A stretch of DNA of 64,000 nt from Gammaproteobacteria bacterium (GTDB taxonomy: Bacteria; Pseudomonadota; Gammaproteobacteria; Ga0077536), in the NCBI GenBank assembly GCA_963662545.2, contig CAXXLL010000002.1, positions 128,001 through 192,000 of the forward strand, read 5' to 3'. Made by a program: the position numbers and the translations under genes. The notes under the pieces were generated by a model. That model was not told where the DNA came from. It was given only the letters and a program-made list of their open reading frames with translations, and searched no databases. Shown in pieces: positions 11,017 to 63,325 of the stretch (position 1 is the stretch's first letter; each line of letters starts with the position of its first letter).

Positions 11017-11022
11017 CTCTAA

Positions 11023-11184
11023 GGAACCTCTGAAAAAGTCATGGCCCATCTGCCTTGCCCATGAAATCGCGGAGCCTTACGTTACGAACCTTAGCCCTAG
11101 TCCCCGCTATTACCTGCGATTCGTGCCTTGATCTGCACAATTTCATGAACCATTCAGACGCACCATGACTTATTCAGAGGTTCC
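11023..11184 (+). mobile_element. 162-bp MITE copy 1 (ftsH-glmM)
   Basis: TIR GGAACCTCTGAAAAAGTCATGG/CCATGACTTATTCAGAGGTTCC; direct repeat CTAA at 11019-11022 and 11185-11188. Confidence 0.92.
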
Positions 11185-11202
11185 CTAAATCAGGACTAAT
11201 CA

Positions 11203-12579
11203 ATGAGCGAGCGTCAACGAAAATACTTTGGTACCGACGGCATTCGCGGTACCGTCGGGCAGAGTCCTATCACGCCCGACTTCGTCATGAAACTCGGATG
11301 GGCCGCGGGCCGCGTTCTCGGAGCGCAATCGTCTGGGCGGCAAAAGGTGTTGATCGGCAAGGACACCCGGATATCCGGATACATGTTCGAATCAGCACTC
11401 GAAGCGGGCCTGTCCGCCGCGGGCATCGATATCCACCTGCTTGGTCCGATGCCGACGCCAGGCATTGCTTACCTCACCCGCACGTTCCACGCCCGGGCGG
11501 GTATCGTGATCAGCGCCTCGCATAACCCGTTCGACGACAACGGCATCAAGTTTCTTTCGCACGAGGGGAAAAAGCTCCCAGACGAAATAGAATTGGCGAT
11601 CGAGGACGAACTCGAAAAGCCACTACAGACGGTCGATTCCCGCAAGCTCGGTAAAGCGAAGCGCGTCGAAGACGCGCCCGGGCGTTACATAGAATTCTGC
11701 AAAAGTACGGTGCGCTCGGGTATCGGTTTGACTGGATTGAAGCTTGTTGTCGACTGCGCGCACGGCGCGACTTACCACATTGCACCGGCGGTCTTCTCCG
11801 AACTGGGCGCCGAGGTGATCGTTCTCGGCGGATCGCCGAACGGATTCAACATCAACGAGAACTGCGGTGCTACGGAGCCGGCTACGTTGCAGCGAGCCGT
11901 TTGCGACGCACAAGCTGATGCGGGCATCGCGCTGGATGGCGACGGCGACCGCTTGATCATGGTAGACGCCGACGGCGAGATTGTCGACGGCGACGAATTG
12001 ACCTTTATCATCGCCCGCCGGCGCCAAAACATCGGCGCGCTGGCCGGCGGCGTGGTCGGGACGCAAATGAGCAACCTCGGACTTGAGCAGGCGATCAAGA
12101 CGCTCGGCTTGGGATTCAAACGCGCAAAAGTCGGTGACCGTTACATCATGGAGATGCTGCAGAAGGATGGCTGGTCCCTGGGCGGGGAATCCTCCGGTCA
12201 TATCATTTGCCTGGATCTGACCACCACGGGCGACGGCATCATCTCAGCACTGCAGGTTCTCGAAACCATGGTGTGCAGCGCGCAGCCCTTGCACGACCTA
12301 AAGCGTGGCATGACGAAATATCCGCAGACGCTAGTCAACGTACGCATGCAAGAGAAAGTTGACGTCCTAAGTTTGCCGGAAGTTGCGCGCGCCGTAGCTG
12401 CGGCCGAGGCGCGCCTCGCCGATAGCGGTCGCGTCCTATTGCGGCCCTCGGGTACCGAGCCTGTCGTGCGGGTCATGGTCGAAGGCCGCGACCGTGCCGT
12501 CGTCGATGAACTTGCCAATGAATTGGCGCGTGAGGTTCAGAAAGCTGCGCGTCAGGCTCACGCGGACGCCGCGGCCTGA
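11203..12579 (+). CDS. glmM: Phosphoglucosamine mutase
   Basis: [29 protein letters not shown]. Confidence 0.98.
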
Positions 12580-12599
12580 ACCTGTTAAAAACTTGACTA

Positions 12600-13421
12600 T
12601 TACACGTCGCGCAGTAAGGCGTTGATGCCGACCTTCGCGCGCGTCCCGGCGTCGACCCGCTTGACGATGACGGCGCAGTAGAGGCTGTGGCTGCCGTCCG
12701 CGGCCGGCAGATTTCCCGAGACGACAACGGATCCGGGCGGTACGAAGCCATGCGAGACGGCTCCCGATTCACGCTCGTAAATCTTCGTACTCTGACCGAT
12801 ATAAACGCCCATCGATATCACCGAACCCGCGCCGACGATGACGCCTTCGACGATTTCCGAGCGGGCGCCTATGAAGCAGCCGTCCTCGATAATGGTCGGT
12901 GCCGCCTGCAGCGGTTCGAGTACGCCGCCGATGCCGACGCCACCGGACAGGTGAACGTTTTTGCCGATCTGGGCGCAGGACCCGACGGTCGCCCAGGTGT
13001 CGACCATGGTGCCTGAATCGACGTAGGCACCGATATTGACGTAGCTAGGCATCAAAATGACGTTCGGCGCGATATAACAGCCGCGTCGCACCGTCGCCGG
13101 CGGTACGACGCGCACACCGATTTTTGCAAACTCCGAAGCACTCATGCCGTCAAACTTGACGTCGATCTTGTCGTAATAATTGCTGTGCCCGCCTGGCATC
13201 ACTCGGTTCGATGACAGCTTGAATGAGAGCAGCACAGCTTTTTTGACCCATTCGTTCACCCGCCATCCGTCGTCGGTCGGCTCAGCAACCCGCAACGAAC
13301 CGTCGTCGAGTTTGGCCAGGCATTCGTCGACTGCGTCGCGAATCGCCGGGCTGGCCGATTCAGCATTGAACTGATCGCGATTCTCAAACGCCTCGTCGAT
13401 GGCGCGCGCGAGGTCTGTCAT
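12600..13421 (-). CDS. dapD: Tetrahydrodipicolinate N-succinyltransferase
   Basis: [39 protein letters not shown], hexapeptide repeats. Confidence 0.98.
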
Positions 13422-13447
13422 GATCTGTCCTCCGCCTTGTGACTTAA

Positions 13448-13609
13448 GAAACCTCTGAAAAAGTCATGGCCCATCTGCCTTGCCCATGAAATCGCGGAGC
13501 CTTACATTACGAAGCTTGCCCATAGTCCCCGCTATGGCCTGCGATTCGTGCCTTGCTCTGCACGATTTCATGCACCATTCAGACGCACCATAACTTAATC
13601 AGAGGTTCC
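13448..13609 (+). mobile_element. 162-bp MITE copy 2, inserted in the 3' end of dapC
   Basis: Same body as copy 1; flanks TTAA/TCAA; overlaps the last codons and stop of dapC. Confidence 0.92.
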
Positions 13610-14798
13610 TCAAACTTTCGCGCATTCGAAGCGCGGCCTCTTCACAATCCTGAAGATCAGCCACCAGGGCGATCCTCAGCCGGTTCGCTCCGGGGTTTCC
13701 CGTCGCCGTCGCGCGGCCAAGGAAGCTTCCGGGCAAGGTCAATACGCCTACGTCGCGGAGCAGCTGTTCGCATGCCGTCAGGTCATCGATTTCGAGTTCC
13801 GGCCATAAGTAAAAGCCGGCCCTGGGGCGCTCGACACGGCTCACTTCGGCCAGGATTGGCAGTACGCGCTCGAATTTTCGTCGGTAAAGCAGGCGATTTT
13901 CGGTGACGTGATCCTCGTCGCTCCATGCTGCGATGCTCGCATGCTGCACAGGTATCGGCATGGCACTGCCATGATACGTTCGATAGCGGTAGAACGCCTC
14001 GATCAGGTTTACGTCGCCGGCGACGAAGCCGGAGCGCAGTCCCGGCGCGTTGGATCGCTTCGAGAGGCTATGCATTACCAGGCAGCGCTCGAACGTATCG
14101 CGCGCGTGGCGCGCGCAGAATTCGAGCAAGCCCAGCGGTGGATCGTCTTCATCGAGATAGAGTTCGCTATAGCACTCATCCGCGACGATGACAAAATCCC
14201 AGCGATCGGCCGCCGCCGTCAGTAATTCGTAATCCGCTTCATCCAATACGGCGCCCGATGGATTCCCCGGCGAGCATACGTAAACGAGCGCCGTTCGCTC
14301 CCACACAGCGGGCGTCACGGCGTTCCAGTCGGGTCGAAATCCGCGCGCGGCTGGACACGGCAAATAATGGGGCCTCGCACCTGCGAGCAGAGCCGCGCCC
14401 TCGTAGATCTGGTAGAACGGATTAGGTACCAGCACGGTATTCTTACGGCCCGATCTATCCACCACGCATTGTGCGATGGCGAACAGTGCCTCGCGCGTAC
14501 CATTCACGGGAAGAACGTGACGCTCGCCGGTCAACGCGCCGTCCGGGAGGTGAAAACGCCGGCGCGCCCATACGCCAATAGCCTCGCGCAGCTCCGGCAA
14601 TCCGCGCGTCGCGGGATAGCGGGCGGTCCCCGACAATGCGTCGATCAGCGCCTCGTGGATGAATGCGGGCGTCTGGTGCTGGGGTTCACCGAGAGAGAGA
14701 TTGATCAGCTTTCGATCGTCGGGTGGATTTATCCGGGCGCGGATTTCAGCAAGCCGTTCGAAGGGATAGGGTCGCAGTTCCTTTAGGCCTTGGTTCAT
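13599..14798 (-). CDS. dapC: Succinyldiaminopimelate aminotransferase
   Basis: PYPFERL, VNGTREALF, PNPFYQIYEGAA, SLSKRSNAPGLRSGF (PLP Lys), YRTYHG; upstream of dapD. Confidence 0.95.
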   Translation of the reverse strand: MNQGLKELRPYPFERLAEIRARINPPDDRKLINLSLGEPQHQTPAFIHEALIDALSGTARYPATRGLPELREAIGVWARRRFHLPDGALTGERHVLPVNGTREALFAIAQCVVDRSGRKNTVLVPNPFYQIYEGAALLAGARPHYLPCPAARGFRPDWNAVTPAVWERTALVYVCSPGNPSGAVLDEADYELLTAAADRWDFVIVADECYSELYLDEDDPPLGLLEFCARHARDTFERCLVMHSLSKRSNAPGLRSGFVAGDVNLIEAFYRYRTYHGSAMPIPVQHASIAAWSDEDHVTENRLLYRRKFERVLPILAEVSRVERPRAGFYLWPELEIDDLTACEQLLRDVGVLTLPGSFLGRATATGNPGANRLRIALVADLQDCEEAALRMRESLRNL

Positions 14799-14866
14799 CT
14801 GGCGACGGTGGCGGGATTTTACGGAGCGCGCAAGTATATCCGAAAGGCTGCTACGCTGAGGCTGGT

Positions 14867-14894
14867 TTGACGCCCCCTGGCTTTACTGTATTCT
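14867..14894 (+). promoter_or_regulatory. Candidate sigma70 promoter for leuB-asd
   Basis: TTGACG-16 bp-TATTCT, about 30 nt upstream of the leuB GTG. Confidence 0.45.
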
Positions 14895-14923
14895 TGCGGC
14901 CTTTTTCGTAACGGGACGAAACC

Positions 14924-16009
14924 GTGGCACATAAAATCCTGTTACTCATGGGTGACGGCATCGGACCGGAAATCGTTGGCGCGGCCGAGCTGCTGCTGGG
15001 CGCCCTGGTCGAACGCTTCGGCCTGTCGTGCGAGATCGAACACGCCCTGATGGGCGGTTGCGCGATCGAAGCGCACGGCGATTCTCTGCCGGACGCAACC
15101 CTGAAGCTTGCACATGCCGCGGACGCGATATTGCTGGGCGCTGTCGGCGGACCACAATGGGACAAGGCCGAACGCTCGATCAGGCCGGAACGCGGGCTGC
15201 TGCGTCTGCGTTCGGAACTCGACCTGTTCTGCAACCTACGCCCAGCCGTCTTAATCGACTCGCTGGCCGAGGCGTCTACACTCAAGCCGGAGGTGGTCGC
15301 GGGTCTGGATTTGATGATCATTCGCGAACTAACCGGTGGGATCTATTTCGGAGAGCCCCGTGGTATCGACACCGATGCGGACGGCCGGCGGCGGGGGTAC
15401 AACACGCTCGTTTACACGGAAGACGAAATCGAACGCATCGCCCGCCTCGGATTCGAAGTGGCGCGCAAGCGTTCGTCCCGTCTGTGTTCGGTGGACAAGG
15501 CGAACGTGCTCGAGGTGACGGAACTGTGGCGCGATATCGTGCTCGGTCTAGCCGATGATTACCCCGACGTGGAATTGTCCCACATGTATGTCGACAATGC
15601 GGCAATGCAGTTAGTACGAGCACCGAAGCAGTTCGACGTCATCGTCACGACCAACTTGTTCGGCGATATCTTGTCGGACCTTGCGGCCATGTTGACGGGT
15701 TCCATCGGCATGTTGCCTTCCGCTTCACTCAACGCCGAGGACAAGGGATTGTTTGAACCGGTGCACGGCTCGGCGCCCGATATTGCGGGCAAGGGTCTGG
15801 CGAATCCGCTCGCGACGATTCTGTCGGTCGCGATGATGTTCCGCTATACGCTTGGCGAAGAGGCGTTGGCCGATAAAGTCGAAGCGGCGGTCACGGCCGT
15901 CCTCGCAGATGGCGTGCGCACCGCTGATATTGCACGCGACGGCGAACGGAGTGTCAGTACCGGACAGATGGCGCAGGCCGTGATCGAGGCCTTAGGAACC
16001 TCTGAATAA
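14924..16009 (+). CDS. leuB: 3-isopropylmalate dehydrogenase
   Basis: [45 protein letters not shown]. Confidence 0.98.
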
Positions 16010-16156
16010 ATCATGGTGGGTCTGAATGGTTCATGCAATGGTGCAGATCAAGGCACGAAGCGCAGGCCATAGCGGGGACTATGGGCAAGGTTCGTAACAC
16101 CGAGCTGCGCGATTTCATGGGCAAGGCAGATGTGCCATGACTTATTTAGAGGTTCC
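15995..16156 (-). mobile_element. 162-bp MITE copy 3, inserted in the 3' end of leuB
   Basis: Reverse-complement copy; direct repeat CTTA at 15991-15994 and 16157-16160; supplies GTSE-stop of LeuB. Confidence 0.93.
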
Positions 16157-16191
16157 CTTAAGGTAATCGATCCCAAAAAAGGGTGAGAGAG

Positions 16192-17214
16192 ATGACGAAA
16201 AGTTTCAAGGTCGCGGTCGTCGGCGCCACCGGAGCGGTCGGCGAAACGATGCTCTCGATCCTGGCTGAGCGCGCATTTCCGGTCAGCGAGGTCTACGCCG
16301 TCGCGAGCGCCCGTTCTGCCGGTTCCAGGGTCGCCTACGGCGGCCGTAATCTGGTGGTTCAGGATCTCGCCTCCTTCGACTTCGACGAGGTCGATATCGG
16401 CCTGTTTTCCCCCGGCGCCTCGGTGTCGAAAATCCACGCGCCGCGTGCGGCGGCGGCTGGCTGTGTGGTCATCGACAATACTTCAGAGTTCCGCTACGAC
16501 GAAGATATTCCGCTGGTCGTCCCGGAAGTCAATCCGGATGCTCTGGGGGGCTACCTGTCGCGCAATATCGTCGCGAATCCCAACTGTTCGACCATCCAGT
16601 TGGTGGTCGCGCTGAAGCCGATTTACGACGCGGTCGGCATCGAGCGCATCAACGTGTGTAGCTACCAGGCGGTTTCGGGCACCGGCAAGGACGCGATCGA
16701 AGAATTGGCCGTGCAGAGTGCAGCGCTGCTGAGCGCCCGCGAAGTGAGTTCTAACGTTTACCCAAAACAGATAGCTTTCAACTGCTTACCGCAAATCGAT
16801 ACGTTTGAGGAGAACGCCTATACCCGCGAGGAAATGAAGATCGTATGGGAGACTCGTAAGATCTTGGGTGACGCCGAGCTGCGGGTAAATCCTACCGCTG
16901 TCAGGGTTCCCGTCTTCTACGGGCACTCTGAAGCCATCCACATCGAAACGGGCGAGAAAATCAGCGCCGGCGAAGTCCGGGCGCTGTTGGAGAAGGCGCC
17001 CGGCGTAGTCGTTGTAGACCGCCACGAAGACGGCGGGTATCCGACCGCCGTCACCGAAGGAGCGAACCGGGACGAGGTTTTCGTCGGCCGTATCCGCGAA
17101 GACATATCATACCCGCGCGGAATCAACCTCTGGGTGGTCTCGGACAACGTTCGAAAAGGTGCCGCGCTCAATAGTATCCAGATCGCGGAAATGTTGGTGA
17201 AAAACCATTTATAA
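16192..17214 (+). CDS. asd: Aspartate-semialdehyde dehydrogenase
   Basis: VVGATGAVG, ANPNCSTIQ catalytic Cys, VRVPVFYGHS, DNVRKGAALN; ATG 16192 preferred over GTG 16183. Confidence 0.97.
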   Translation: MTKSFKVAVVGATGAVGETMLSILAERAFPVSEVYAVASARSAGSRVAYGGRNLVVQDLASFDFDEVDIGLFSPGASVSKIHAPRAAAAGCVVIDNTSEFRYDEDIPLVVPEVNPDALGGYLSRNIVANPNCSTIQLVVALKPIYDAVGIERINVCSYQAVSGTGKDAIEELAVQSAALLSAREVSSNVYPKQIAFNCLPQIDTFEENAYTREEMKIVWETRKILGDAELRVNPTAVRVPVFYGHSEAIHIETGEKISAGEVRALLEKAPGVVVVDRHEDGGYPTAVTEGANRDEVFVGRIREDISYPRGINLWVVSDNVRKGAALNSIQIAEMLVKNHL

Positions 17215-17354
17215 GCTATAGTTAACAACCAATTATAAAGAATATTCGAAGGTACTAGAGGCATGCCTGCGAGAAGTGGGAGGGCCCGACATTTCGCGCG
17301 AGCGATCAACCCGATGCATTTCTATCGTCTGCCAATCGATTAAGGAACGACCTC

Positions 17355-21122: not shown

Positions 21123-21193
21123 TCATCGGCAATCCAGCGTCGCGTGCGTCGAACCGCGGTGCGCGCTCGTCGCGGAAGTGTCCTAAGCTTCTC

Positions 21194-21982: not shown

Positions 21983-22116
21983 ATGGTCGCCACGGGCGTG
22001 GTGTATAAGATTTTGAGTTACACGGCGTTCTCCGGAGCTCATTCATTCAGTATAAACTGCGCTCCTCACAATCCGCGCTCCCCGAAAGCGCACCTCGTCT
22101 GATCGCCGCAGAGGAA

Positions 22117-22749: not shown

Positions 22750-23977
22750 GCTCGACGCGATCGTGAAAATGGGGCCGGGGGAGGAGACGTCCTGGCCCGA
22801 CGCCAACGGACACTTCGGCCCCTACGGTGGGCGATTTGTCGCCGAGACACTGATGCAACCGCTGGCGGAACTCGAGGCGGCATACCATCGCTATTTGTGC
22901 GACGAAGAATTCCTGCGCGAACTTGACGAGGATTTACGGTGTTACGTCGGACGGCCGTCTCCGCTGTATTTCGCCAAACGGTGGTCGCATGAAGTTGGCG
23001 GGGCCCGCATCTATTTAAAACGCGAAGATTTGAATCATACCGGCGCGCATAAGATCAACAATACCATCGGCCAGGCTCTGCTTGCACGGCGCATGGGCAA
23101 ACCGCGGGTCATCGCCGAGACGGGTGCCGGGCAGCACGGTGTTGCGACGGCAACCGTCGCGGCGCGCCTCCACATGAGTTGCTGTGTTTACATGGGTTCA
23201 GAGGACATTCAACGGCAGTCGACCAACGTCTTCCGCATGAAATTACTAGGTGCAGAGGTCGTCGCGGTGGATTCCGGATCACGCACTTTGAAGGACGCTC
23301 TCAACGAAGCGATGCGCGATTGGGTTAGCCATGTCGACGATACGTTCTACATTATCGGTACGGTTGCCGGGCCGCATCCCTATCCGGCGATGGTCCGCGA
23401 CTTCCAAACCGTCATCGGTCGCGAAACACGTGCACAATGTCTCGACTTGGAAGGCCGCTTACCGGACGCACTGGTTGCTTGCGTCGGCGGCGGATCGAAT
23501 GCGATCGGCATGTTCTACCCGTTCATCAACGACGCCGCAGTGCAGTTTTGGGGCGTCGAGGCCGGCGGAGACGGGCTCGAGAGCGGGCGCCACGCAGCCC
23601 CGCTGAGCGCCGGCAGACCTGGTGTGCTGCATGGCAACCGTACTTACCTGATGCAGGATGAGTGCGGACAGATCGAATTGACTCATTCGATATCCGCAGG
23701 GCTTGATTATCCGGGAGTCGGGCCGGAACATGCGTGGCTCAAGGATGAGGGAAGAGCGCGCTACGTCAGTGTCACAGACGAGGAGGCGCTCGCGGCATTC
23801 AGGCGCGTGACCCTGCTCGAGGGCATCATGCCGGCCTTGGAATCGAGCCACGCGCTGGCATACGCCGAAGGACTGGCGCGGAGAATGCAGACGGATGAGT
23901 TCATCGTCGTGAATCTGTCGGGTCGCGGCGACAAGGACATTCAAACCGTTGCGGACATCGACGGCATTACACTTTAA
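22736..23977 (+). CDS. trpB: Tryptophan synthase beta subunit
   Basis: [46 protein letters not shown]; exact start uncertain. Confidence 0.98.
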
Positions 23978-24020
23978 TTGGGAGTTGAAAACCGATTTCC
24001 TATCGTTTTTCAACAGCCTA
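23978..24020. repeat. 43-bp hairpin mini-element, copy B (inverted), abutting the trpB stop codon
   Basis: GTTGAAAACCGATTTCCTATCGTTTTTCAACAGCCT matches the reverse complement of 3047-3089; flanks TTAA (contains trpB TAA)/CTAA. Confidence 0.8.
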
Positions 24021-24063
24021 CTAACCATTGGCGGCGCGTCGGAATGCGATCGAAAGCGATACG

Positions 24064-24867: not shown

Positions 24868-24880
24868 TAGGAATTCAGCC

Positions 24881-40689: not shown

Positions 40690-41226
40690 CTAAATCTGTT
40701 TGCGCCGCAGGAGTACGTACAGCGCGCCAGATCCGCCGTCGTTGCGCGGCGCCGAGGTGAAGGCGAGCACACCGCCGTGCTGGCGCAGCCAGCGGCCTAC
40801 CTTGGGCTTGAGCACTGGGTTCTTGCCGGGTGAACTCAAGCCTTTCCCGTGGATGACGCGCACACAGGCGAAACGCTGGCCGCGCGCGCGCTCGAGAAAC
40901 GCTGCGAGTCGTTCCTTGGCTTCAGGCACCGTCAACCCGTGGAGGTCGAGTTCATCCTGTACGGCATATCGGCCGCGTCTGAGTTTGCGTAGCACGCTGC
41001 GCTGCAGACCAGGACGGTGGAACTCGGTGACCTCGCTGCTGTCAGCGGCATCCCAGTCGAAATCGCCGCGATCGAGGTCGCGTATGACGGCGGTTGCATC
41101 GCGTTCGGAGTGGCGCGGCAGTGGCGGTGGCCGCGGATGATCCGGTGCTACCGTGTCATGTTCGAGTCTTCTTACCTTGCCGACGAGCTTCCGAAAGGAA
41201 TCGAGTTCCGAATCATCTTGCGCCAC
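40690..41226 (-). CDS. Smr/MutS2-domain endonuclease
   Basis: LDLHGLT, VIHGKG, GGSGALYVLL; start set to GTG 41226 behind AGGAG because the longer ORF start lies inside MITE copy 4. Confidence 0.9.
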   Translation of the reverse strand: MAQDDSELDSFRKLVGKVRRLEHDTVAPDHPRPPPLPRHSERDATAVIRDLDRGDFDWDAADSSEVTEFHRPGLQRSVLRKLRRGRYAVQDELDLHGLTVPEAKERLAAFLERARGQRFACVRVIHGKGLSSPGKNPVLKPKVGRWLRQHGGVLAFTSAPRNDGGSGALYVLLRRKQI

Positions 41227-41256
41227 GATACCCTGTCTCCTCGTGGTAGTTACTAA

Positions 41257-41418
41257 GGAACCTCTGAATAAGTCATGGCACATCTGCCTTGCCCATGAAA
41301 TCGCGCAGCTCAGCGTTACGAAGCTTGCCAATAGTCCCCGCTATTGCCTGCGCTTCGTGCCTTGATCTGCACAATTGCATGAATAATTCAGACGCACCAT
41401 GACTTATTCAGAGGTTCC
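41257..41418 (+). mobile_element. 162-bp MITE copy 4 (purL-smr)
   Basis: Perfect 22-bp TIR; flanks CTAA (41253-41256)/TTAA (41419-41422). Confidence 0.93.
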
Positions 41419-41446
41419 TTAAATCGATCGCCGTGTCGCGGCGAGG

Positions 41447-44400
41447 TCAATTGCCGGCAACCCAGCGCCTTGCGTTGTTGAACAAAGCCATCCACGGACT
41501 TTCCTCATCACTCCAGGACGGTGGGCACCACGAATACTGCTTGCTCAGAAACCCTCGTTCCGGATGCGGCATCATGATGGTGATCCTGCCGTCGTCGGTG
41601 GTGAGCCCAGTGATGCCGCGTGGTGACCCGTTGGGATTAAGGGGATAAGACTCGGTGCATTGTCCGCGGTTGTCGACGAAGCGCAAACACACCCCGCGTT
41701 CGTTGTCCGGGGCGCCGGATGGCCATGCGGCGCGGCCTTCGCCATGGGCGACGATGATGGGCGCGGCCAGGCCTTCCAGGCCCGCAGTCAAAATCGAGTT
41801 CGATCGGACCACTTCGGCCATGACGAGGCGCGCTTCGAACTGTTCGGAGGTGTTGCGCTCGAATGACGGCCAGTGCGCCGCGCCTGGAATGAGGTCCCGA
41901 AGGTCGCTCAGCATCTGGCAGCCGTTGCAAACCCCGAGCGTAAACGTATCTACCCGCGCGAAAAACGCTTCGAACACGTCGCGGGCGCGCCTATTCAGGC
42001 GGATGGTTCCAGCCCATCCGCGTCCCGCTCCCAGGACGTCACCGTAGGAGAATCCTCCGCAGGCGGCGAGACCGACCATGCTGTCCAGTGATTCCCTGCC
42101 GTCGATGATATCGGTCATGTGTACGTCGACTGCATCGAAGCCGGCGCGGTCGAAGGCCGCGGCCATTTCGACGTGTCCGTTCACGCCCTGCTCACGCAGC
42201 ACAGCGACCCGCGGACGCGCGCCTATTGTGACGGCAGCGGCAATGTGGTGATTGTTGAAGTTCGTTCGCGGAAGCCTGATCGCAAGACCTGGATCATCGC
42301 GATCGAGAATGACGGCGAGTTCTTGATCCGCACACTCAGGGTTATCGCGCAGGCGCTGTATCGCATGCGTCGTCGACGAATAGCCTGCCAGCAACGCGTT
42401 TAAATCCGCTTTGATTACCTGTTTTCCTCTGTGGCCCAGCTTGAGCATCCGATTGTCAACAGGCCGTCCGATCAGGTGAACGCAGTCGCCAAGGCCAGTG
42501 GACTCCACGAAAAAGGCTTCGACGCGGTCGCGTTCAGCGGCCGGGATCTGGATGACGGCGCCGAGTTCTTCGGCGAACAAGGCCCTCAGCGGGTCATCAC
42601 CGAGCGAACTCAGATCAATATCCAGTCCGAGCCTCGCGGCGAACGCCATTTCCGCGAGGGTAACGGCAAGTCCACCATCCGAGCGATCGTGATAGGCCAG
42701 CAGATAACCGCCATCGTTCAGCGCCTGCACGGCGCGGAAGAAATCCGCGAGGTCGCGGGCCTCCTCGCAGTCGGGAGGAACGCCGCCCTGCATGCCGTAA
42801 CTTTGCGCCAGGATCGAACCACCCACTCGATTGCGCCCGTGCCCCAGGTCAACGAGCAGCAACACCGTGTCTTCGTCGCGGGAGAGTTCCGGGGTCAGGC
42901 TCTGGCGCACGTCCGTGACCGGCGCGAATGCGGACACGATCAGCGAAACGGGCGCCACGGTTTGCCACGTTTCGCCGTCGACATTCCAAGCTGAGCGCAT
43001 AGACATTGAATCTTTGCCAACCGGAATGTTGATTCCCAGTGCGGGACAGAACTCCAGGCCGACCGCCCGAACCATGTCATAAAGCCGGGCGTCCTCTCCC
43101 GGATGTCCTGCCGGGCACATCCAGTTTGCCGACAGCACCACATCGGCCAGCTGTTTAATCCGGGCCGCCGCGATATTGGTAACAGCCTCAGCCACGGCGA
43201 GGCGGGCGGACGCGGGTCCGTCGATCAAGGCGACGGGCGTGCGTTCGCCCAGCGCCATGGCTTCACCGACATGGTTCGAAAAACCGCTCGACGTCACCGC
43301 GCAATCGGCCACCGGCACCTGCCATGGCCCGATCATCTGGTCCCGCACCGCGAGTCCGCCGACCGTACGATCGCCGATCGTGATCAGGAAACGTTTGTCG
43401 CCGACGCCGGGAAAGGATAATACGCGCTCTAGTGCTTCGTGGAGATCTACCCGCGAGAAGTCCGGCGAAGCCAGATTCGTCTGCACGTGTTTCACGTCAC
43501 GCTGCATACGCGGCGGCTTACCGAAAATGACATCCATGGGTAGGTCGATGGCCGGCGTTCCCGTGAGGCTGTCATTTACGACGATCTGTTCGCGTTCGGT
43601 CGCCGTACCAACTACCGCGTAGGGACAGCGTTCGCGTTTGCAGATTTCGGCGATCTGTTCAACGCCGTCGGCGCTGACGGCGAGGACGTAACGTTCCTGC
43701 GCCTCGTTACACCAGATCTCGTGCGGCGACATACCTGGCTCCGCATTGGGAATGTCGCGCAATTCGATGATCCCGCCGCGATCGCTGTCGTGCAGTATTT
43801 CCGGAATCGCGTTTGACAAACCGCCGGCGCCAACGTCGTGTATCGTGAGGACGGGGTTGGCGTCGCCGGCGGCCCAGCAAGTATCGATCACCTGCTGGCA
43901 GCGTCGCTGCATCTCGGCGTTATCCCGCTGTACCGACGCGAAGTCGAGGTCCGCATCGATGGCGCCCGAACCTAGCGATGATGCGGCGCCGCCGCCCAGG
44001 CCGATGAGCATGGCGGGCCCGCCGAGTATAAGAATCCTGGCACCGGCGGGAATCGCCTGCTTGGCGACGTGCCCGGGCCGGATGTTGCCAAGGCCCCCGG
44101 CCAGCATGATGGGTTTGTCGTAACCGCGTACGGTACGTTCGGTATCACCAGGCGACTCGAAGGTGCGGAAATAACCGGTCAGCGCCGGGCGTCCGAATTC
44201 ATTATTGAAAGCGGCGGCGCCGACGGGTCCTTCGAGCATGATTTCGAGTGCTGTCGCGAGTCGGGGATTCAGCGGTCGTGCGGTTTCCCAGGGCGGCGCG
44301 GCGCCGGGCAGGCGCAGGTGCGATACGGTGAAACCGGTCAAGCCCGCCTTTGGCTTCGCGCCGCGTCCAGTCGCCCCTTCGTCGCGGATCTCACCGCCGG

Positions 44401-45331
44401 CGCCGGTCGAAGCGCCCGGGTAGGGTGATATTGCCGTCGGGTGGTTGTGGGTTTCGACCTTCAACACGATCGGCACGTCTTCGTGATGATGCGTATAAGT
44501 GAGGTTCGCACCGTTCACACAAAACCGCTCCGCGCTGTAGCCTCGACTGACCGCGGCGTTGTCCCGATAGGCAGACAAGACGTCGTTGGGATGGCAGGCA
44601 TAGGTGTTTCGAATCATGTCGAACAGGCTGAGCGGTTCCTCACGTCCGTCCACCGACCATGATGCGTTGAAGATCTTGTGACGGCAGTGCTCGGAATTAG
44701 CCTGCGCGAACATCATCAGTTCGACGTCCGTCGGATCACGTTCGAGTTCCCGATACCGATCGTCGAGATAATCGATCTCTTCATCCGCCAGCGCGAGGCC
44801 GAGAGACGCGTTGGCGGACAGGAGTGCATCGCGTCCCTCTGCCAGCAGCGGAACGCGCACCAGCTGCCCTGGCCGAGCCGTCGAATTGAGCACATTGAGT
44901 TCGGCGCACGATCGCATGACGGTTTCCGTCATTCGATCGTGTAGAAACGGCAGCAAGCGTTCGATGTCCTTCGGGTCAAGGCCGGTGACGAACCAGGCGG
45001 TCACACGCTCGATACGCGCGAGCCCGGTCACGCCGCAATTCATGCAGATGTCGGCCGCCTTGCTGGACCAGGGAGATATCGTGCCGATGCGTGGCGTGAC
45101 CAGAAAGTCGGGCTCGGCGGCTTGGTGGTTGCCGGCGGGGTCGCGCGCGCGCGTAAGGCGGTTCAGCAGGGCCCTCTCGGCAGTCGTCGCGCCGTCGGCG
45201 TTATAAAACCAGGCGGCGAACAAGTGCTCGGCGTCAATCGTCTCCAAGGCCGGCGCTACGTGTACGCAATCAGCCTTGAGTTTTTCGATTCGAAAGGGAG
45301 AAAGGGCGCGCCCGCCCCGTAGTAACAACAT
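41447..45331 (-). CDS. purL: FGAM synthase, large single-chain type
   Basis: [53 protein letters not shown]; 1294 aa. Confidence 0.99.
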
Positions 45332-45349
45332 TCGATCTCTAACCCTTAG

Positions 45350-45511
45350 GGAACCTCTGAATAAGTCATGGTGCGTCTGAATTGTTCATGCAATTGTGCA
45401 GATCAAGGCACGAATCGCAGGTAATAGCGGGGACTATTGGCAAGGTTCGTAACGCCGAGCTGCGGAATTTCATGGGCAAGGCAGATGTGCCATGACTTTT
45501 TCAGAGGTTCC
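45350..45511 (-). mobile_element. 162-bp MITE copy 5, between the secretin-N gene and purL
   Basis: Reverse-complement copy; direct repeat TTAG at 45346-45349 and 45512-45515, the latter containing the upstream gene's TAA stop. Confidence 0.93.
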
Positions 45512-46372
45512 TTAGGGTATGACTTCCACCTTCACCCAGACGTCGTAGACGTCGCTACCCTGGCGCCGCGTGCTGTAGAGCGTACCGCTCGTCGCATCAT
45601 TGAACGCCTGGGCAGCACCGCCGAGTGGTATCCATTCACCCAGCCGACCGCTGACGGTCGTTGACAGGCCGCGTGCATCGATCAAACCACCGCCGGAACG
45701 ATTGAGGTTCTCGGCAAACGGCGAGATCTCGAGGTGAATCCGGTCGCCCGCAACGCGCGGCAGGACGTAGAAACCTGAACCGACATTACGATACCTGATG
45801 GATCCGAACACGGTAGCGCCATACGGCGTCCACACCACCGAGTGCTCCGGCAGCGGGACGGATTTCCCCGCACTGATGAAAGCAGGCGAGCCTTCAATGG
45901 CATGCACGAAATGCGTATTGTCAGCGTCGTGCACGCCCTGCGTGCTGTAATTGCGATACTGCAGTTGCTTGTCTCCATCGCCATAGGTGATGCTCGCGCC
46001 CGGCCCGCGCCGCGGCCGGCCGACTCGGGCCTGAACATCACCGCCAGTAATGCGGGCCGACAGTTCGTTTTCGCGGATCCGCGAGTGAGCATCGATGTCC
46101 TGACGCACGGTGATGCGCAGTTGTTTCAATTTCGCATCGAGCGCCGCGAGGACGTTCTTGAGATCGACCAGGTTTTCGGGCGTTGTGCGGATGATCAGCT
46201 GGTCGTTCATGCCGGTTACAGTACCGCCATCGGTAACCAATGCCTGGAGCGTCGGTACGATGTCGCCGACGAGACGATGCTTGAGTGGAATAATCTCCAA
46301 GATCATTTCGGCACTTTGCACCGCTGGCGCGATCGAGATAAGGGCGATCGTTAGGATGAGGATACGGCTCAT
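45512..46372 (-). CDS. Exported secretin-N-terminal (NolW-like) domain protein
   Basis: Signal peptide, EIIPLKHR...LIIRTTPENL..L.ALD...QLRITV, GFYVLPR, TTVSGRLGEWI; ATG 46372 overlaps the upstream stop (ATGA). Confidence 0.7.
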   Translation of the reverse strand: MSRILILTIALISIAPAVQSAEMILEIIPLKHRLVGDIVPTLQALVTDGGTVTGMNDQLIIRTTPENLVDLKNVLAALDAKLKQLRITVRQDIDAHSRIRENELSARITGGDVQARVGRPRRGPGASITYGDGDKQLQYRNYSTQGVHDADNTHFVHAIEGSPAFISAGKSVPLPEHSVVWTPYGATVFGSIRYRNVGSGFYVLPRVAGDRIHLEISPFAENLNRSGGGLIDARGLSTTVSGRLGEWIPLGGAAQAFNDATSGTLYSTRRQGSDVYDVWVKVEVIP

Positions 46373-46902
46373 ATGTGCAGCCTCCGGAAATTCGTGTCGG
46401 GCACGCCGCGTTCCCACATTTCCTCGATCCGATCGGCGAGCCCTTTGGCGATCCGCCTGTCATTGAAATCCGCCGTACCTTCGAAGCGATCGGAAAACTG
46501 GCGATGTATGTATCCAGTGTTATCGGCCACGAGGATCGCTTCATTAAACTGCTTGTGCTGAGGCGCGGGCGCGCGAATTTCAATGTAACTCGCTAGACGC
46601 GAACTCAGTTCGAGCACCCGATGACCGGTCGAAATAAGCGGCCTGGACTCGACGATGAACAGCCTTATTTGCGCAGTTCGGTTGTTCAAGGCCACGTTCT
46701 TGAGGGCCTCGACAAAGGCGTCATTGTCGTAGATGGCAGGGTCTAAATGGCGGCTGACGATCATCAGCGACTGCCTGCATTGCCGGGCCATCGTCACACT
46801 GATCACGGCGAGCGATTCGTGATCGTCGAATGTCAGCGGCGCGGCCGTCTCGCCGAGCACGGCGCCTTCGTAGCCGGCGATTTCACCTCGGACCTCAGAC
46901 AT
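46369..46902 (-). CDS. Conserved hypothetical protein (PLD-like N-terminal fold suspected)
   Basis: Coupled to purB and to the downstream gene by overlaps; SRHLDPAIYD, GHRVLELSSRL.S.IEIR, LVADNTGY. Confidence 0.75.
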   Translation of the reverse strand: MSEVRGEIAGYEGAVLGETAAPLTFDDHESLAVISVTMARQCRQSLMIVSRHLDPAIYDNDAFVEALKNVALNNRTAQIRLFIVESRPLISTGHRVLELSSRLASYIEIRAPAPQHKQFNEAILVADNTGYIHRQFSDRFEGTADFNDRRIAKGLADRIEEMWERGVPDTNFRRLHI

Positions 46903-50074: not shown

Positions 50075-50094
50075 TATAAGCAGAGCGCGGGCAC

Positions 50095-52520: not shown

Positions 52521-52558
52521 GATCGCGGCCGCGAAAAGGTGCGCCTAGGGGGGCCGCG

Positions 52559-52567
52559 TGCTATAAT
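52559..52567 (+). promoter_or_regulatory. Extended -10 promoter element of gyrA
   Basis: TGcTATAAT consensus about 58 nt upstream of the gyrA ATG. Confidence 0.6.
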
Positions 52568-52625
52568 ACGCAGGTCTAGCGGACCAAGAATCCTCCTTTA
52601 AAATCAATCAGTTAAATTCATTCTG

Positions 52626-55190: not shown

Positions 55191-55248
55191 GCCTACACCG
55201 GCCGAACGGTGGCCGCGGACTCGAATTCCTGGATCGGGGTAAGGATTC

Positions 55249-56334: not shown

Positions 56335-56368
56335 GCATTGACGGGTGGGCGCGCGCGGAACCAGTTCG

Positions 56369-58583: not shown

Positions 58584-58585
58584 CG

Positions 58586-59266
58586 GTGCTTGACGGGGTT
58601 CCGGTTATCACCATCGACGGCCCGAGCGGCAGTGGCAAGGGCACCCTGGCCCGAAGGATCAAGGGCTGGCTCGGGTGGCACCTGCTGGATTCCGGTTCGC
58701 TCTACCGCCTGGTCGCGCTCGAGGCGCGGCGTGGCGGCACCGATTTCGAAGACGAAGCGGCCCTCGCGGTGGTGGCCGTCGAACTCGGCGCCGAATTCGT
58801 CGATGAGAAGGAGGAAACAAAGGTTGTACTGTGCGGCAGTGATGTTACCGACGCGCTGCGCTCGGAAGCGTGCGGCACAGACGCATCGAGCCTGGCGGCC
58901 TATCCCGCGGTGCGCGCGGCCCTGCTAGCACGCCAGCGGGCATTTCTCGAACCGCCCGGCTTGGTTGCGGACGGGCGCGATATGGGCACGGTCGTTTTCC
59001 CCCACGCCGACCTCAAGATCTACCTCACCGCGAGCCCCGAGGAACGTGCCCGAAGGCGCTATAAGCAGTTGAAACAAAAAGGAATGAGTGTTAACCTCGC
59101 GCAGCTTTTGGGGGACATCGCCGAGCGTGATCGGCGGGATAAACAACGTACAGTATCCCCTTTAAAGCCTGCGATCGACGCCGTCCTCCTCGACACGACC
59201 CTAATGGACGTATCCGCTGTAGAGGATCAGATAAAGCGTCTGGTGCGCGATACCGGTCTGGCCTGA
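58586..59266 (+). CDS. cmk: Cytidylate kinase
   Basis: IDGPSGSGKGT, LDSG.LYR, ADGRDMGTVVFP. Confidence 0.97.
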   Translation: MLDGVPVITIDGPSGSGKGTLARRIKGWLGWHLLDSGSLYRLVALEARRGGTDFEDEAALAVVAVELGAEFVDEKEETKVVLCGSDVTDALRSEACGTDASSLAAYPAVRAALLARQRAFLEPPGLVADGRDMGTVVFPHADLKIYLTASPEERARRRYKQLKQKGMSVNLAQLLGDIAERDRRDKQRTVSPLKPAIDAVLLDTTLMDVSAVEDQIKRLVRDTGLA

Positions 59267-59387
59267 AGTACGCGATTTAAGCGCACGACGCCGGATTGCC
59301 CATTAACACGACTAAGAGACGAGGACGTTTGCAGACAGCCGGCGGTGACCGCGCCGCGGCAGAACAGGCATTCGGTTAAGAAATACT

Positions 59388-61058
59388 ATGGCGGAGAGTT
59401 TCGCAGAATTATTCGAACAAAGTCAGATTGAATCTAAAATGCGGCCGGGCACCATCGTCAAGGGCACGGTCGTGGAAATCCGCGCGGATTTCGTGGTCGT
59501 CAACGCCGGTCTCAAGTCCGAAGGCGTGATCCCGGCAGAGCAGTTTCGCAATTCCGAGGGCGAAGTCGACGTCGCCGTCGGAGAAGAAATCGACGTCGCG
59601 CTCGACGCGGTAGAGGACGGTTACGGGGAAACACGGCTGTCCCGGGAAAAAGCCAAGCGTGCGAAGGCCTGGGAAGAGCTGGAAGAAGCCTGCGAAGAAA
59701 GCAAGACCGTCACGGGCGTCATCAGCGACAAGGTCAAAGGCGGATTCACCGTCGATATCAGTTCCATACGAGCCTTTCTGCCGGGTTCGCTGGTCGACGT
59801 GCGGCCAGTCCGCGACACCAGTTATCTCGAGGGTAAACCCCTCGAATTCAAAGTCATCAAGGTCGACCGTCGCCGCAACAACGTCGTCGTTTCACGCCGT
59901 GCGGTCGTCGAAAGTGAGAATTCTGCGGAGCGGGAGGCGCTGCTCGACAGCCTGGCGGAAGGAACCGTCATTAAGGGCCTGGTCAAGAATCTGACCGATT
60001 ACGGCGCGTTCATCGATCTCGGTGGTATCGACGGGCTGCTGCATATTACCGACATGGCCTGGAGGCGGGTGAAGCACCCGTCCGAGGTGGTCAATATCGG
60101 CGATGAGATCGAAGTCAAGGTCTTGAAATTCGATCGCGAGCGCCAGCGGGTGTCACTCGGCCTCAAGCAGTTGGGCGACGATCCGTGGGTCGACATCGCG
60201 CGGCGCTATCCGGAGCACTCTCGACTGTTTGGCAAGGTTTCGAACATCGCCGATTATGGCTGCTTCGTCGAGATCGAAGAAGGCGTGGAAGGGCTGGTTC
60301 ACGTTTCCGAAATGGATTGGACCAATAAGAATGTGCATCCCACGAAAGTCGTTCACCTCGGCGAGGAAGTGGAAGTGATGGTGCTCGACATCGACGAAGA
60401 GCGCCGCCGCATCTCTCTCGGTATGAAACAGTGTCGTTCCAATCCCTGGGAAGAATTCGCCGCGACGCACAACAAGAACGACCGTGTGGTGGGTACGATT
60501 AAGTCGATTACGGATTTCGGCATTTTCATCGGCCTGGACGGCGGCATAGACGGCCTCGTACACCTGTCGGACCTGTCGTGGGATCTACCCGGCGAAGAGG
60601 TCGTACGCAATTATAAAAAAGGCGATGAGCTTGAAACCGTAGTGCTGGCCGTGGACGCCGAACGCGAACGCATTTCCTTGGGCGTCAAGCAGTTGGCCCA
60701 GGACCCATTTTCGACCTACCTCGCGCTGAACCCGAAGGGCACGCGCGTCACCGGCAAAATCGTGAGCGTCGATGCGAAGGCAGCGGTCATCGATCTGGCG
60801 GAAGGGGTAGAGGGCACGATCAGGGCCTCCGAACTCTCGATCGATCAGGTAGACGATACGCGTAAAGTCCTCAAGGAAGGTGAGGAACTCGAGGCGCTCA
60901 TCGTCGGTGTTGATCGCAAGCGCCGCGTCGTCACTCTTTCAGTCAAGGCCAAGGAGAGTGAAGAAGAACAGGCGGCGCTGCAGGAATACAGCGCCGAAAA
61001 CGAATCTTCGCGGGCGACACTCGGCGATCTGCTGAAAAAGCAGCTTGATTCCAAATAG
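59388..61058 (+). CDS. rpsA: 30S ribosomal protein S1
   Basis: ESFAELFE, repeated S1 domains ([32 protein letters not shown]). Confidence 0.99.
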
Positions 61059-61086
61059 CATCGTCCTGAGCTAATCGAGAAGAATA

Positions 61087-61458
61087 ATGACGAAGTCTGA
61101 ACTGATCGAATCGCTGGTATGGAAACAGTCTCAACTCGGCTATCGTGATGTCGAACTGGCCGTCAAGACTATGCTCGAGCATATGGGGCAAACGCTCGCC
61201 TCAGGCGAACGAATAGAAATCAGAGGCTTCGGCAGTTTTTCGTTGCACTACCGGCCGCCGCGGGTCGGGCGCAATCCCAAATCGGGTGATGCCGTGTCAT
61301 TGCCGGCGAAGTATGTGCCGCACTTCAAACCGGGGAAGGAATTGCGCGAAAGGGTAAATAACGGCGCCGCCAAGGCGCGGGAAATCAAACCCGCCAACGA
61401 CAACGATCCCGATACCGAATCCGACCAAGAGCAGGCTGGATCCGATACCATCTCCTAA
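61087..61458 (+). CDS. ihfB: Integration host factor beta, with acidic C-terminal extension
   Basis: [37 protein letters not shown]. Confidence 0.97.
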
Positions 61459-61637
61459 GCACCCTTACCGGCTGCTAGGTTCGTTCCCGACCTACGAAAC
61501 CGCTGGCGATCGAATCGAAACTCGATCCAGCCGCGGCATCCGTGCGATCATACCTCCCTGCCGTGAGCAGGGGTTAGGAGACCGTATGCCATACAGGGTC
61601 TCAGTCGTTAATCGATCGCAACCATTAGGGAATTGAA

Positions 61638-61931
61638 TTGTCTCGTGTCCTGTATATGGCGTTCGCTATTTTCATGGCGGTGTGCGGACTCGCGTTTCAC
61701 GTGCGCAACGATCAGGAAATCGTTTTGAATTATTTTACGGGCAGTCTCCAAATCGAATTGTCCATCGTCGTCGTCGGTGCGCTCGTTGCCGGCGCGATTC
61801 TCGGCGTGCTTGCAATGACGGCCACCGTATTACGCCTCAGGCGCAATATCAGGCGTCTCTCCCGGCGAAATGAAATCGCGAACCGGGAGCTTTCGAGCTT
61901 GAGAGCCATATCGCTAAATGATGGCGGCTGA
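61638..61931 (+). CDS. lapA: LPS assembly protein LapA
   Basis: Two TM helices with N...LNYF loop and basic tail; ihfB-lapA-lapB-pyrF synteny. Confidence 0.8.
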   Translation: MSRVLYMAFAIFMAVCGLAFHVRNDQEIVLNYFTGSLQIELSIVVVGALVAGAILGVLAMTATVLRLRRNIRRLSRRNEIANRELSSLRAISLNDGG

Positions 61932-63105
61932 GTACCTTTTCGGTATCGTCGTTTTTCTGCTGCCGCTCGCCGCCGTCTCCGGATGGTATTTCGGCCGCAG
62001 GGGAAATCCGCCCGAAGCGGGGCGTAACGGCGTGTCAGGCATCCCATCGGACTATTTCCGTGGACTCAATTACCTGCTCAACGACCGGCCGGACAAAGCC
62101 ATCGAGGTTTTCATCAAGGTCCTGGAGGTCGAAAGTGAAACCGTGGAAACGCACCTCGCCTTGGGCAATCTGTTTCGGCGTCGCGGCGAAGTCGACCGGG
62201 CGATTCGCATTCACCAAAACCTGGTGTCGGAGCCGAGCCTGGATTTCGATCAACGCGCGCTCGCATTGCTCGAACTGGGTTTGGATTATATGCGTTCGGG
62301 TCTGCTTGACCGCGCTGAGAGCTTGTTCAAGGAATTACTCGATTCCGGTGCGCACCAGCGCCAGGCCATGGACCACTTGATCGATATTTACCAGCAGGAG
62401 CAGGACTGGGACAAGGCGCTCGAATATACAGGGCGCCTCGAGAAACTGGCCAACCGTAATTTAGGTGACGTGCGCGCGCATTTTTATTGCGAGCAAGCGG
62501 CGACGCAAATCGAAGAGGGCAACGTCGAGAATGCGAGCGATCTGTTGCGCCAGGCGATGCAGATGGACAAGAACTGCGTTCGCGCAAGCCTCATGCAGGC
62601 GCGAATCGCGATGACCGCGGGAGCATACGAGGCTGCGATCCGTCATCTCGAGGAAATCGAAAAGCAGAACCTGGCGTTTCTGCCCGAGGCGATCACTCCA
62701 CTGGTTGAAAGCTACCGGGCTTTGGATCGAATTGCCGACCTCGTGCGCTACCTCGAACGTTTAAGCGCGCTTCACGCCGGGATCACTCCGGTACTCGTAC
62801 TGGCCGAAGTCATGACGGAGCTGGGTAATGTCGAGGAGGCGAAAAAGCGCATTATCGACGAACTCAAGAACCGGCCGACTGTCCGGGGTATCGACCGATT
62901 GATCGATTATTCACTAACCGGCGCGGACGGTGAAACGAAGGAGAATCTCGTACTCCTCAAGGAACTCACGGCCAGCCTCATCGAGGAAAAGTCGAGCTAC
63001 ATGTGCGGAAACTGCGGATTTAAAGGACGCTCGCTGCACTGGCAGTGTCCCAGCTGTAAGCTCTGGAACTCGGTAAAACCGATCCACGGCATCGAGGGCG
63101 AATGA
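61921..63105 (+). CDS. lapB: LPS assembly protein LapB
   Basis: LLPLAA.SGW, YFRGLNYLL, ETHLALGNLFRRRGE.DRAIRIHQ, TPRs, C-terminal CxxCG...WQCPSC. Confidence 0.96.
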   Translation: MAAEYLFGIVVFLLPLAAVSGWYFGRRGNPPEAGRNGVSGIPSDYFRGLNYLLNDRPDKAIEVFIKVLEVESETVETHLALGNLFRRRGEVDRAIRIHQNLVSEPSLDFDQRALALLELGLDYMRSGLLDRAESLFKELLDSGAHQRQAMDHLIDIYQQEQDWDKALEYTGRLEKLANRNLGDVRAHFYCEQAATQIEEGNVENASDLLRQAMQMDKNCVRASLMQARIAMTAGAYEAAIRHLEEIEKQNLAFLPEAITPLVESYRALDRIADLVRYLERLSALHAGITPVLVLAEVMTELGNVEEAKKRIIDELKNRPTVRGIDRLIDYSLTGADGETKENLVLLKELTASLIEEKSSYMCGNCGFKGRSLHWQCPSCKLWNSVKPIHGIEGE

Positions 63106-63153
63106 GCCGACGCCGCAAGCGTTTGTGCGCCGATCACTACGCCATAGATTTAG

Positions 63154-63315
63154 GGAACCCCTGAATAGGTCATGGCCCATCTGCCTTGCCGATGAAATCG
63201 CGGAGCCTTACGTTACGAACCTTAGCCCTGGTCCCCACGATGGCCTGCGATTGGTGCCCTGATCTGCACCATTGCATGAACCATTCAAACGCACCATGAC
63301 TTATTCAGATGTTTC
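63154..63315 (+). mobile_element. 162-bp MITE copy 6 (lapB-pyrF), most degenerate
   Basis: Same body with mutated TIRs; direct repeat TTAG at 63150-63153 and 63316-63319. Confidence 0.9.
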
Positions 63316-63325
63316 TTAGGTTGCG

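Follow-up and report, generated by a model that had tools for sequence, protein, structure and literature searches.

How does a 162-bp sequence come to stand six times among the housekeeping operons of an uncultured gammaproteobacterium? The question is raised by a 64,000-nt stretch of contig CAXXLL010000002.1 (assembly GCA_963662545.2, positions 128,001 to 192,000, lineage Ga0077536), which was analysed as a whole and is called the window below. An earlier note on this DNA had described the repeated sequence as a MITE (miniature inverted-repeat transposable element), with ends like those of the insertion sequence (IS) IS5 and without a transposase of its own. Our analysis makes it very probable that the six copies form an IS5-group MITE family, that is, a family of non-autonomous DNA transposons. 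The non-autonomous, IS5-type character proposed earlier is supported by the terminal inverted repeats, by the lack of coding capacity, by perfect target-site duplications (TSDs) around 27 of 50 paired elements and by one empty orthologous site.

Six copies with paired inverted termini

The element lies at 11023-11184, 13448-13609, 15995-16156, 41257-41418, 45350-45511 and 63154-63315 (copies 1 to 6). A search of the window with the 22-nt terminus, with up to three mismatches permitted, returned 12 termini arranged as six plus/minus pairs, each terminus with 0-2 mismatches, while the mean number of matches in 100 dinucleotide-preserving shuffles of the window was 0. The terminus search and the alignment of the copies thus bear out both the positions and the 22-bp terminal inverted repeats reported before, and the flanking tetranucleotides were also given correctly: CTAA/CTAA, TTAA/TCAA, CTTA/CTTA, CTAA/TTAA, TTAG/TTAG and TTAG/TTAG for copies 1 to 6, respectively.

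All six copies align without gaps, at a mean column identity of 93%, once copies 3 (15995) and 5 (45350) are reversed. These two are inverted with respect to the other four, a point absent from the earlier note, and if left unreversed they appear diverged in their interior. Within the set, copies 3, 4 and 5 form the closest group (92-95% identical), with copies 4 and 5 as the closest pair (95%); both termini of copy 4 equal the consensus, and copy 6 is the most diverged, with 88% identity to the family consensus. An independent repeat scan of the window recovered the same six members, and an nhmmer profile built from 44 full-length copies detected no seventh copy or fragment in the window (E <= 0.01). 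None of the 162-bp copies has coding capacity, and no transposase is carried by any of them.

Target-site duplications in the window and in related genomes

Further copies were sought in a genome collection with the exact terminus (W at position 13), which gave 42 stretches in 41 loci, amounting to 569,432 bases. The window's own genome evidently lies outside this collection, as its perfect termini were not returned. The great majority of the loci (38 of 41, with 38 exact-terminus stretches) belong to one metagenome-assembled genome (MAG), JAYYZW01, of a Pseudomonadota bacterium; the remaining three come from a Gammaproteobacteria MAG (L026), a contig of Candidatus Endoriftia persephone (L027) and a Nitrospiria MAG (L033).

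Each plus terminus in the window and the fetched loci (up to four mismatches) was joined to the next minus terminus. This yielded 50 elements, one of which is an artefactual 759-bp pairing, leaving 49 real ones. A length of 162 bp is found in 30 of the elements and of 161 bp in 11, and a few measure 52, 126, 135, 159, 160, 163 or 178 bp. The 4-mers on both sides are identical in 27 of the 50, where the chance of two 4-mers being identical is about 1 in 256, and a duplication pattern over further copies, on which the earlier note had made its reading depend, is therefore present. The perfect duplications are CTAA (13), TTAG (8), TTAA (2) and one each of TTTA, ATAA, TCAA and CTTA, so that 23 of the 27 fit YTAR (Py-T-A-Pu); most paired elements outside this group show a one-base difference between their flanks. 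After correction for orientation CTAA and TTAG are equally frequent (10 each), which indicates that the element enters an asymmetric target either way round.

According to the available part of PMC5493358, the IS5 target is a Py-T-A-Pu tetranucleotide that is duplicated on insertion, and the targets quoted there from ISfinder are CTAG (15), CTAA (3), TTAG (3), CAAG (1), CTTA (1) and CTTT (1). As CTTA is part of this list, the duplication around copy 3 falls inside the known range. A 2-bp TA duplication of the mariner-like kind was considered and rejected, since the repeated unit comprises four bases and the outer ones lie outside the inverted repeat.

An empty site and the age of the family

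One locus of the JAYYZW01 MAG (L013) is the orthologue of window positions 1046-21851, in blocks of 88.5-93.8% identity (about 92%). The orthologous comparison covers copies 1 to 3, and no locus spans copies 4 to 6. Copies 1 and 2 occupy the same sites in L013 (at 9861-10022 and 12287-12448, respectively), and their insertion therefore predates the split of the two genomes. Copy 3 is missing there: where the window has X-CTTA-element-CTTA-Y, the relative has X-CTTG-Y, with a single 4-mer. Such an empty site, which the earlier note had suggested looking for, is thus found for copy 3, and to judge from the alignment this copy has been gained, or precisely lost, after the split from the relative of about 92% identity. 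The pairwise identity among full-length copies ranges from 75 to 97% (mean 87%), without any identical pair. Judged by these sequences the family looks old, with some activity after the split.

Other traces of its history are seen in the interior of the copies. The two orthologous copies 1 (window 11023-11184 and L013 9861-10022) differ in a clustered block, at about alignment columns 110-135, and the block matches two alternative subfamilies among the other copies, which is most simply read as gene conversion between dispersed copies. There are also miniature derivatives of 47-52 bp, which consist of hardly more than both termini (L004 10001-10052; L022 4147-4193 and 14610-14656; L035 3330-3376). 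A deletion between the internal short repeat TCTGAAT and its partner apparently gave rise to these derivatives, some of which still have TTAG-like flanking 4-mers.

Approximately 42 paired and 13 partial copies lie in about 0.52 Mb of non-overlapping fetched DNA, a sample that is biased, having been chosen around copies. The earlier extrapolation to hundreds of copies genome-wide is not supported by the 38 stretches found in the related MAG and, because the copies are clustered, their density cannot simply be multiplied to genome scale. Dozens of copies in the relative are certain, and more are possible because repeats break assemblies. Three JAYYZW01 contigs (L008, L035 and L037) end within a copy, two of the fragments being identical and 141 bases long; contig ends inside copies indicate that this repeat, too, breaks the assembly.

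IS5-type ends and described relatives

The ends of IS5A in Escherichia coli K-12 read GGAAGGTGCGAA(T/C)AAG and are identical to the terminus of the element at 12 of 16 positions, exactly the figure that had been put forward for the IS5 inverted repeat. A closer match came from plasmids. A 38-nt query made of the left TSD, the terminus and the next 12 bases gave five records at E <= 10, two of which are the same pA81 plasmid, and the whole 162-bp element had no match in the plasmid collection (blastn, E <= 0.01). On pA81 of Achromobacter xylosoxidans (NC_006830) the match lies directly upstream of an annotated IS5 family transposase gene, within an IS of about 1.2 kb that has TTAA on both flanks. 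Its left end, GGAACCTCTGAACAAGTC, is 17/18 identical to the terminus of the element, and over 312 residues the transposase of this IS shares 59% identity with InsH of E. coli. An end this close, a TTAA duplication and an InsH-like transposase strengthen the proposed link to IS5. Two elements, ISAxIa and ISAxIb, are listed for pA81 in the table of a review (PMC7494797), and the IS seen here may be one of them. IS5 (E. coli IS5A, insH1, K-12 MG1655) and the pA81 IS resemble the element in their terminal repeats and in the 4-bp Py-T-A-Pu duplication, but both are autonomous, with about 1.2 kb and a DDE transposase of 322-326 residues, whereas the element here has no gene.

Similar ends delimit other short elements in distant bacteria. 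The Candidatus Endoriftia persephone contig AASF01001982.1 contains an element of about 208 bp (L027 1338-1545), whose left terminus has the same 22 bases and whose duplication is TTAG; its right terminus is diverged and its interior different, and by its sequence it looks like a second miniature family that shares the same ends. A 159-bp, AT-richer element with a TCAA duplication is found in a different phylum, in the Nitrospiria MAG contig JBHHXE010000075.1 (L033 8139-8297). It is 62% identical to the consensus and matches the family profile from end to end (E = 5e-14), and either horizontal spread or a binning error may have brought it there. The Xanthomonas perforans plasmid CP077786.1 matches the terminus in five places and carries an element of about 150 bp (L043 3006-3156), whose terminus, GGAACCTCTGAACAACTCG, is similar and whose duplication is CTAA; a match on a Xanthomonas phaseoli plasmid (H2) lies at the end of a cardiolipin-synthase-family gene, beside a TAL-effector gene. 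As far as these sequences go, IS5-type ends are widespread and are used by more than one miniature family.

The closest described relative appears to be MITEPsy1 of Pseudomonas syringae pv. phaseolicola 1448A, together with ISPsy2; on the basis of terminal repeats and length, which the comparison covers, we treat it as a separate family. In the available part of PMC3189936, MITEPsy1 is likewise a non-coding miniature element and is attributed to the IS5-family ISPsy2. Its 18-nt terminal repeats are given there as GGAAGGTCTGAAAAAGCC (left) and GTATCCTCTGAAAAAGCC (right). The right repeat has the 12-mer CCTCTGAAAAAG in common with copies 1, 2 and 5, and the left one is identical at 14 of 18 positions to the A-variant of the terminus. 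The duplication has 4 nt, CTAG or YTAA, in the same source (4 bp here too), and an insertion of MITEPsy1 at a gene's 3' end can give rise to a new allele, much like the gene-end insertions described below. It differs in its length, 100 nt against 162 nt, and in its outer bases. The same text records six copies in 1448A, a transposition caught in a trap and a candidate parent IS in the same genome; none was seen for the element described here.

The Correia elements (CREE/NEMIS) of Neisseria, ERIC and the palindromic elements of Rickettsia resemble the element in life-style only, likened by description and not by sequence: they are numerous short palindromes in or between operons, co-transcribed with genes, and some alter gene ends. 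Correia elements have a TA duplication and Correia-specific 26-bp repeats with unrelated termini, without IS5-type ends. An identity with them was considered and rejected, as the duplication here is of 4 bp. Identity with REP/BIME sequences was rejected as well; these RAYT-associated palindromes have 20-40 bp and no target duplication, whereas the element is 162 bp long, shows an empty site and is flanked by 4-bp duplications. In full text, the terminal 12-mer was found only in three unrelated primer matches, and no literature that treats 'Endoriftia' together with 'MITE' was found. The family is apparently unnamed: the previous statement that it is not a named one agrees with the Rfam and full-text 12-mer searches, ISfinder standing outside this comparison.

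Search for a transposase

No match to a transposase family (NCBIfam or Pfam) was found among 56 long open reading frames (ORFs) scanned in the window, all the named ones being housekeeping genes, and InsH and the pA81 enzyme, both IS5-group transposases, gave nothing in the window when used as tblastn queries. The lack of a transposase in the window, as noted before, is thus supported by both approaches. A self-comparison of the fetched loci revealed no repeated DNA of the size of an IS. There are 16 unpaired termini, which represent truncated copies, the 47-52-bp internally deleted derivatives or copies at contig ends. As insertion sequences are usually lost from MAG assemblies, little weight attaches to the missing transposase.

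Copies at gene boundaries and stop codons

The window has a G+C content of about 59% and is packed with housekeeping genes (dnaJ, dapB, carAB, greA, rlmE, ftsH, glmM, dapD, dapC, leuB, asd, fimV, truA, trpFBA, accD, purF, fhs, pyrG, kdsA, eno, ispDF, smrA, purL, purB, gyrA, pheA, tyrA, aroA, cmk, rpsA, ihfB, lapB and pyrF). Copies 1, 2, 4 and 6 are on the plus strand of the window and copies 3 and 5 on the minus strand; with respect to the flanking genes there are three copies each way. Copy 1, with CTAA at 11019-11022 and 11185-11188, lies between ftsH (8958-10883) and glmM (11203-12579) and ends 18 nt upstream of the glmM ATG. Copy 2 is within the 3' end of dapC (minus, 13599-14798), upstream of dapD (12600-13421), flanked by TTAA and TCAA. 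Copy 3, the one absent from the related MAG, is bounded by CTTA at 15991-15994 and 16157-16160; it falls within the final codons of leuB (14924-16009), with 26 nt between it and the asd start (16183). Copy 4 is found between the purL stop (41447, minus) and the smrA start (minus), with flanks CTAA and TTAA, and copy 5, with TTAG at 45346-45349 and 45512-45515, 18 nt upstream of the purL ATG (45331, minus), its other side being occupied by an ORF with a secretin domain. Copy 6, with TTAG at 63150-63153 and 63316-63319, is placed between lapB (61918-63105) and pyrF (63326-), 10 nt upstream of the pyrF ATG. Three copies are thus clustered within 5 kb and two lie on either side of purL.

Two of the insertions have changed the end of a gene. 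The leuB product terminates in IEALGTSE* in the window, with copy 3 within, and in IEALR* at the empty site of L013; the second copy of the CTTA duplication still reads LR*. The dapC product ends in ...SLRNL*, with the last three codons and the TGA coming from copy 2. If the dapC frame is continued from the left TSD, it reads LSHKAEDRS* and its TGA overlaps the dapD ATG. From this reconstruction dapC apparently ended, before the insertion, in a TGA overlapping the dapD ATG (an ATGA overlap), and the arrival of copy 2 would have cost dapC nine codons together with that overlap. The two genes are now separated by the element (13415-13447 and 13599-13613), and the same state is seen in the related MAG. 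At copy 5, the right TSD contains the TAA stop of ORF 45512-46417 (minus), upstream of purL.

The association with stop codons extends to the whole collection. In 14 of 49 paired elements an open frame of 150 codons or more has its stop in the duplication (as TAA or TAG), and in 5 of 49 inside the element, as compared with 217 of 4228 strand-wise YTAR sites (5.1%) that end such frames in the background. The binomial probability is 3e-4 against a per-site background of about 10.3% (twice the strand-wise 5.1%), for a count that uses raw open frames, not verified genes, and includes two orthologous pairs, so that 47 of the 49 insertions are independent. This bias fits a target with TAA or TAG in it, where insertions at other places in genes are selected against.

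Several further features of the surroundings may be mentioned. Copies 4 and 5, inverted relative to each other, enclose purL (41257-45511), a layout that could permit inversion or composite-like behaviour of this 4.25-kb segment; the outer flanks of the bracket, CTAA and TTAG, form no direct repeat. At 10884-11202, glmM follows ftsH directly, with no folP between them, and the related MAG has the same arrangement, the usual gene order being ftsH-folP-glmM. A second small repeat, about 41 bp long, occurs at 3053-3093 and 23984-24024, the two copies being 78% identical. Both contain an inverted repeat (GTTGA.AA.CGAT ... ATCGTTTTTCAAC), after which CCT.CTAA follows, and both lie just downstream of a gene end, namely that of an ORF ending at 3001 and that of trpB at 23977; it may represent a terminator-like palindromic repeat family.

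A hairpin in probably transcribed copies

As a single strand, copy 4 folds into a near-complete hairpin of -75.8 kcal/mol (z = -9.9, 200 shuffles). When this hairpin is laid on 45 aligned copies, 89% of the cells pair and changes on both sides are seen in 20 of 64 pairs, compared with a mean of 7.7 in shuffled controls (0 of 500 reach 20) and with 8-15 when the structure is slid by 1-3 columns; this covariation comes mostly from a few subfamilies, and related sequences inflate such a signal. In the RNAalifold consensus the terminal stem and some small stems further in are all that remains, and the covariation term is -0.44 kcal/mol. Selection for the hairpin is possible, the covariation signal being modest.

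A scan of 10900-16300 gave three promoter-like and three terminator-like sites, not above the level of shuffles, and none of them lies in copies 1 to 3, which argues that the element is neither a canonical intrinsic terminator nor an obvious sigma-70 promoter. With distances of 10-26 nt to the starts of glmM, purL, pyrF and asd there is no room for a promoter, and the copies are therefore probably transcribed. Rfam, with which a comparison had been advised, gave 0 matches at gathering scores over the window and 0 at E <= 1 for 41200-41480, where copy 4 lies, and no described RNA family thus matches the element.

Discussion

All together, these observations are best accounted for by a family of IS5-group MITEs. 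A DDE transposase supplied in trans would bind and cleave at the 22-bp inverted repeats, and the element would insert where a Py-T-A-Pu target, mostly CTAA/TTAG in this case, is cut with a 4-bp stagger; repair of this cut would leave the 4-bp direct duplication. Selection would then remove insertions inside genes and, as the target contains TAA or TAG, the surviving copies would gather at stop codons and in the short intergenic gaps of housekeeping operons. Two of them provide the essential genes leuB and dapC with new C-terminal codons and a stop codon. Mobilisation in trans by an IS5-type transposase, the identity and present activity of that enzyme and the transcription of the copies within their operons are the parts of this model that we infer.

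Several results weigh against the model or limit it. The cognate transposase was not found: the best tblastn values in the window and the 41 loci, E = 0.12 and 0.76, are taken as noise, and none of the 16 unpaired termini continues into an IS or a transposase gene. A perfect duplication is missing in 23 of the 50 elements, and CTAG, the commonest IS5 target in the ISfinder list as quoted in the available part of PMC5493358, is never a perfect duplication here. The raw frames and shared insertions in the stop-codon count count against it too. There is one empty site only, at which a precise loss in the relative is indistinguishable from a gain in the lineage of the window, and the lack of an identical full-length pair means that the family may no longer be active. 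The last point leads to a variant of the model that we regard as quite possible, if short of probable, in which the lineage has lost the transposase and the IS5-type MITEs persist as immobile relics that decay and recombine. Such a fossil state would agree with the failure to find an IS5-like transposase in either the window or the loci (569,432 bases), with the spread of pairwise identities (75-97%), with the fact that two of the three comparable copies are older than the split from the relative, with the frequency of truncated or internally deleted derivatives (52, 126, 135 and 178 bp, and the unpaired termini) and with the interior block of the copy 1 orthologues, which suggests gene conversion rather than transposition. 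However, the window has copy 3 where the relative lacks it, so that a gain or loss took place after the split, copy 4 retains two perfect termini, and a missing transposase says little where MAG assemblies usually lack IS and about 0.5 Mb of one relative has been seen.

The other explanations start from the palindrome. The 162-nt hairpin, whatever its origin, might be kept for a function in polycistronic transcripts, for example by offering RNase III a processing site, by stabilising mRNA or by modulating translational coupling, for which the RNase III cleavage at Correia repeats and the RNase E effects of ERIC, both described in the available part of the review PMC10969869, are precedents. 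The near-complete fold, the excess of double-sided changes over shuffled copies, the position of probably transcribed copies just upstream of glmM, purL, pyrF and asd and the lack of promoter- or terminator-like sites in copies 1 to 3 speak for such a domesticated hairpin, but for structural reasons MITEs are often palindromic past their termini, the covariation derives largely from few subfamilies and is inflated by their relatedness, the copies show no orientation bias with respect to genes and copy 3 is dispensable in the relative; we thus consider this alternative unlikely. A bolder version, which we judge improbable, sees in the element a domesticated 'operon punctuation' hairpin that would set mRNA processing or translational coupling in this lineage and was possibly spread by a partner that is not a resident IS5; it draws on the paired changes in the arms, the presumed place in transcripts of essential operons, the 10-26 nt to the next starts, the replaced stops of leuB and dapC, the broken dapC-dapD overlap, the diverged relatives with the same ends in another phylum and the fact that no transposase was seen near any copy. 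A short, palindromic, repeated and intergenic sequence could finally be a REP/BIME-like palindrome spread by a RAYT (IS200/IS605-type) or a multi-copy gene for a structured non-coding RNA. Yet the 4-bp direct duplications and the empty site speak for a transposon, as mobilisation of the RAYT type is not known to produce either, and the termini resemble IS5-group ends, Rfam has no match, the copies take both orientations with respect to genes and two of them lie within coding sequence, all of which makes these last possibilities hardly credible.

IS5-derived MITEs are well known, and the mechanism proposed here for the preferred reading, a non-autonomous IS5-group family, is not new. The value of the finding is descriptive: it adds, from an uncultured lineage of gammaproteobacteria, a clean and dense family that has apparently not been described before and that comes with an empty site and with two insertions whose age can be set against a speciation event. 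It illustrates how a Py-T-A-Pu target steers insertions to stop codons, with essential genes such as leuB and dapC gaining element-encoded C-termini and stops without being lost. From a practical point of view, the family marks repeats that break related MAG assemblies, and its copies offer markers by which strains of this group can be typed. Should the hairpins undergo processing in mRNA, they would provide a convenient system to study how operons tolerate large structured inserts.

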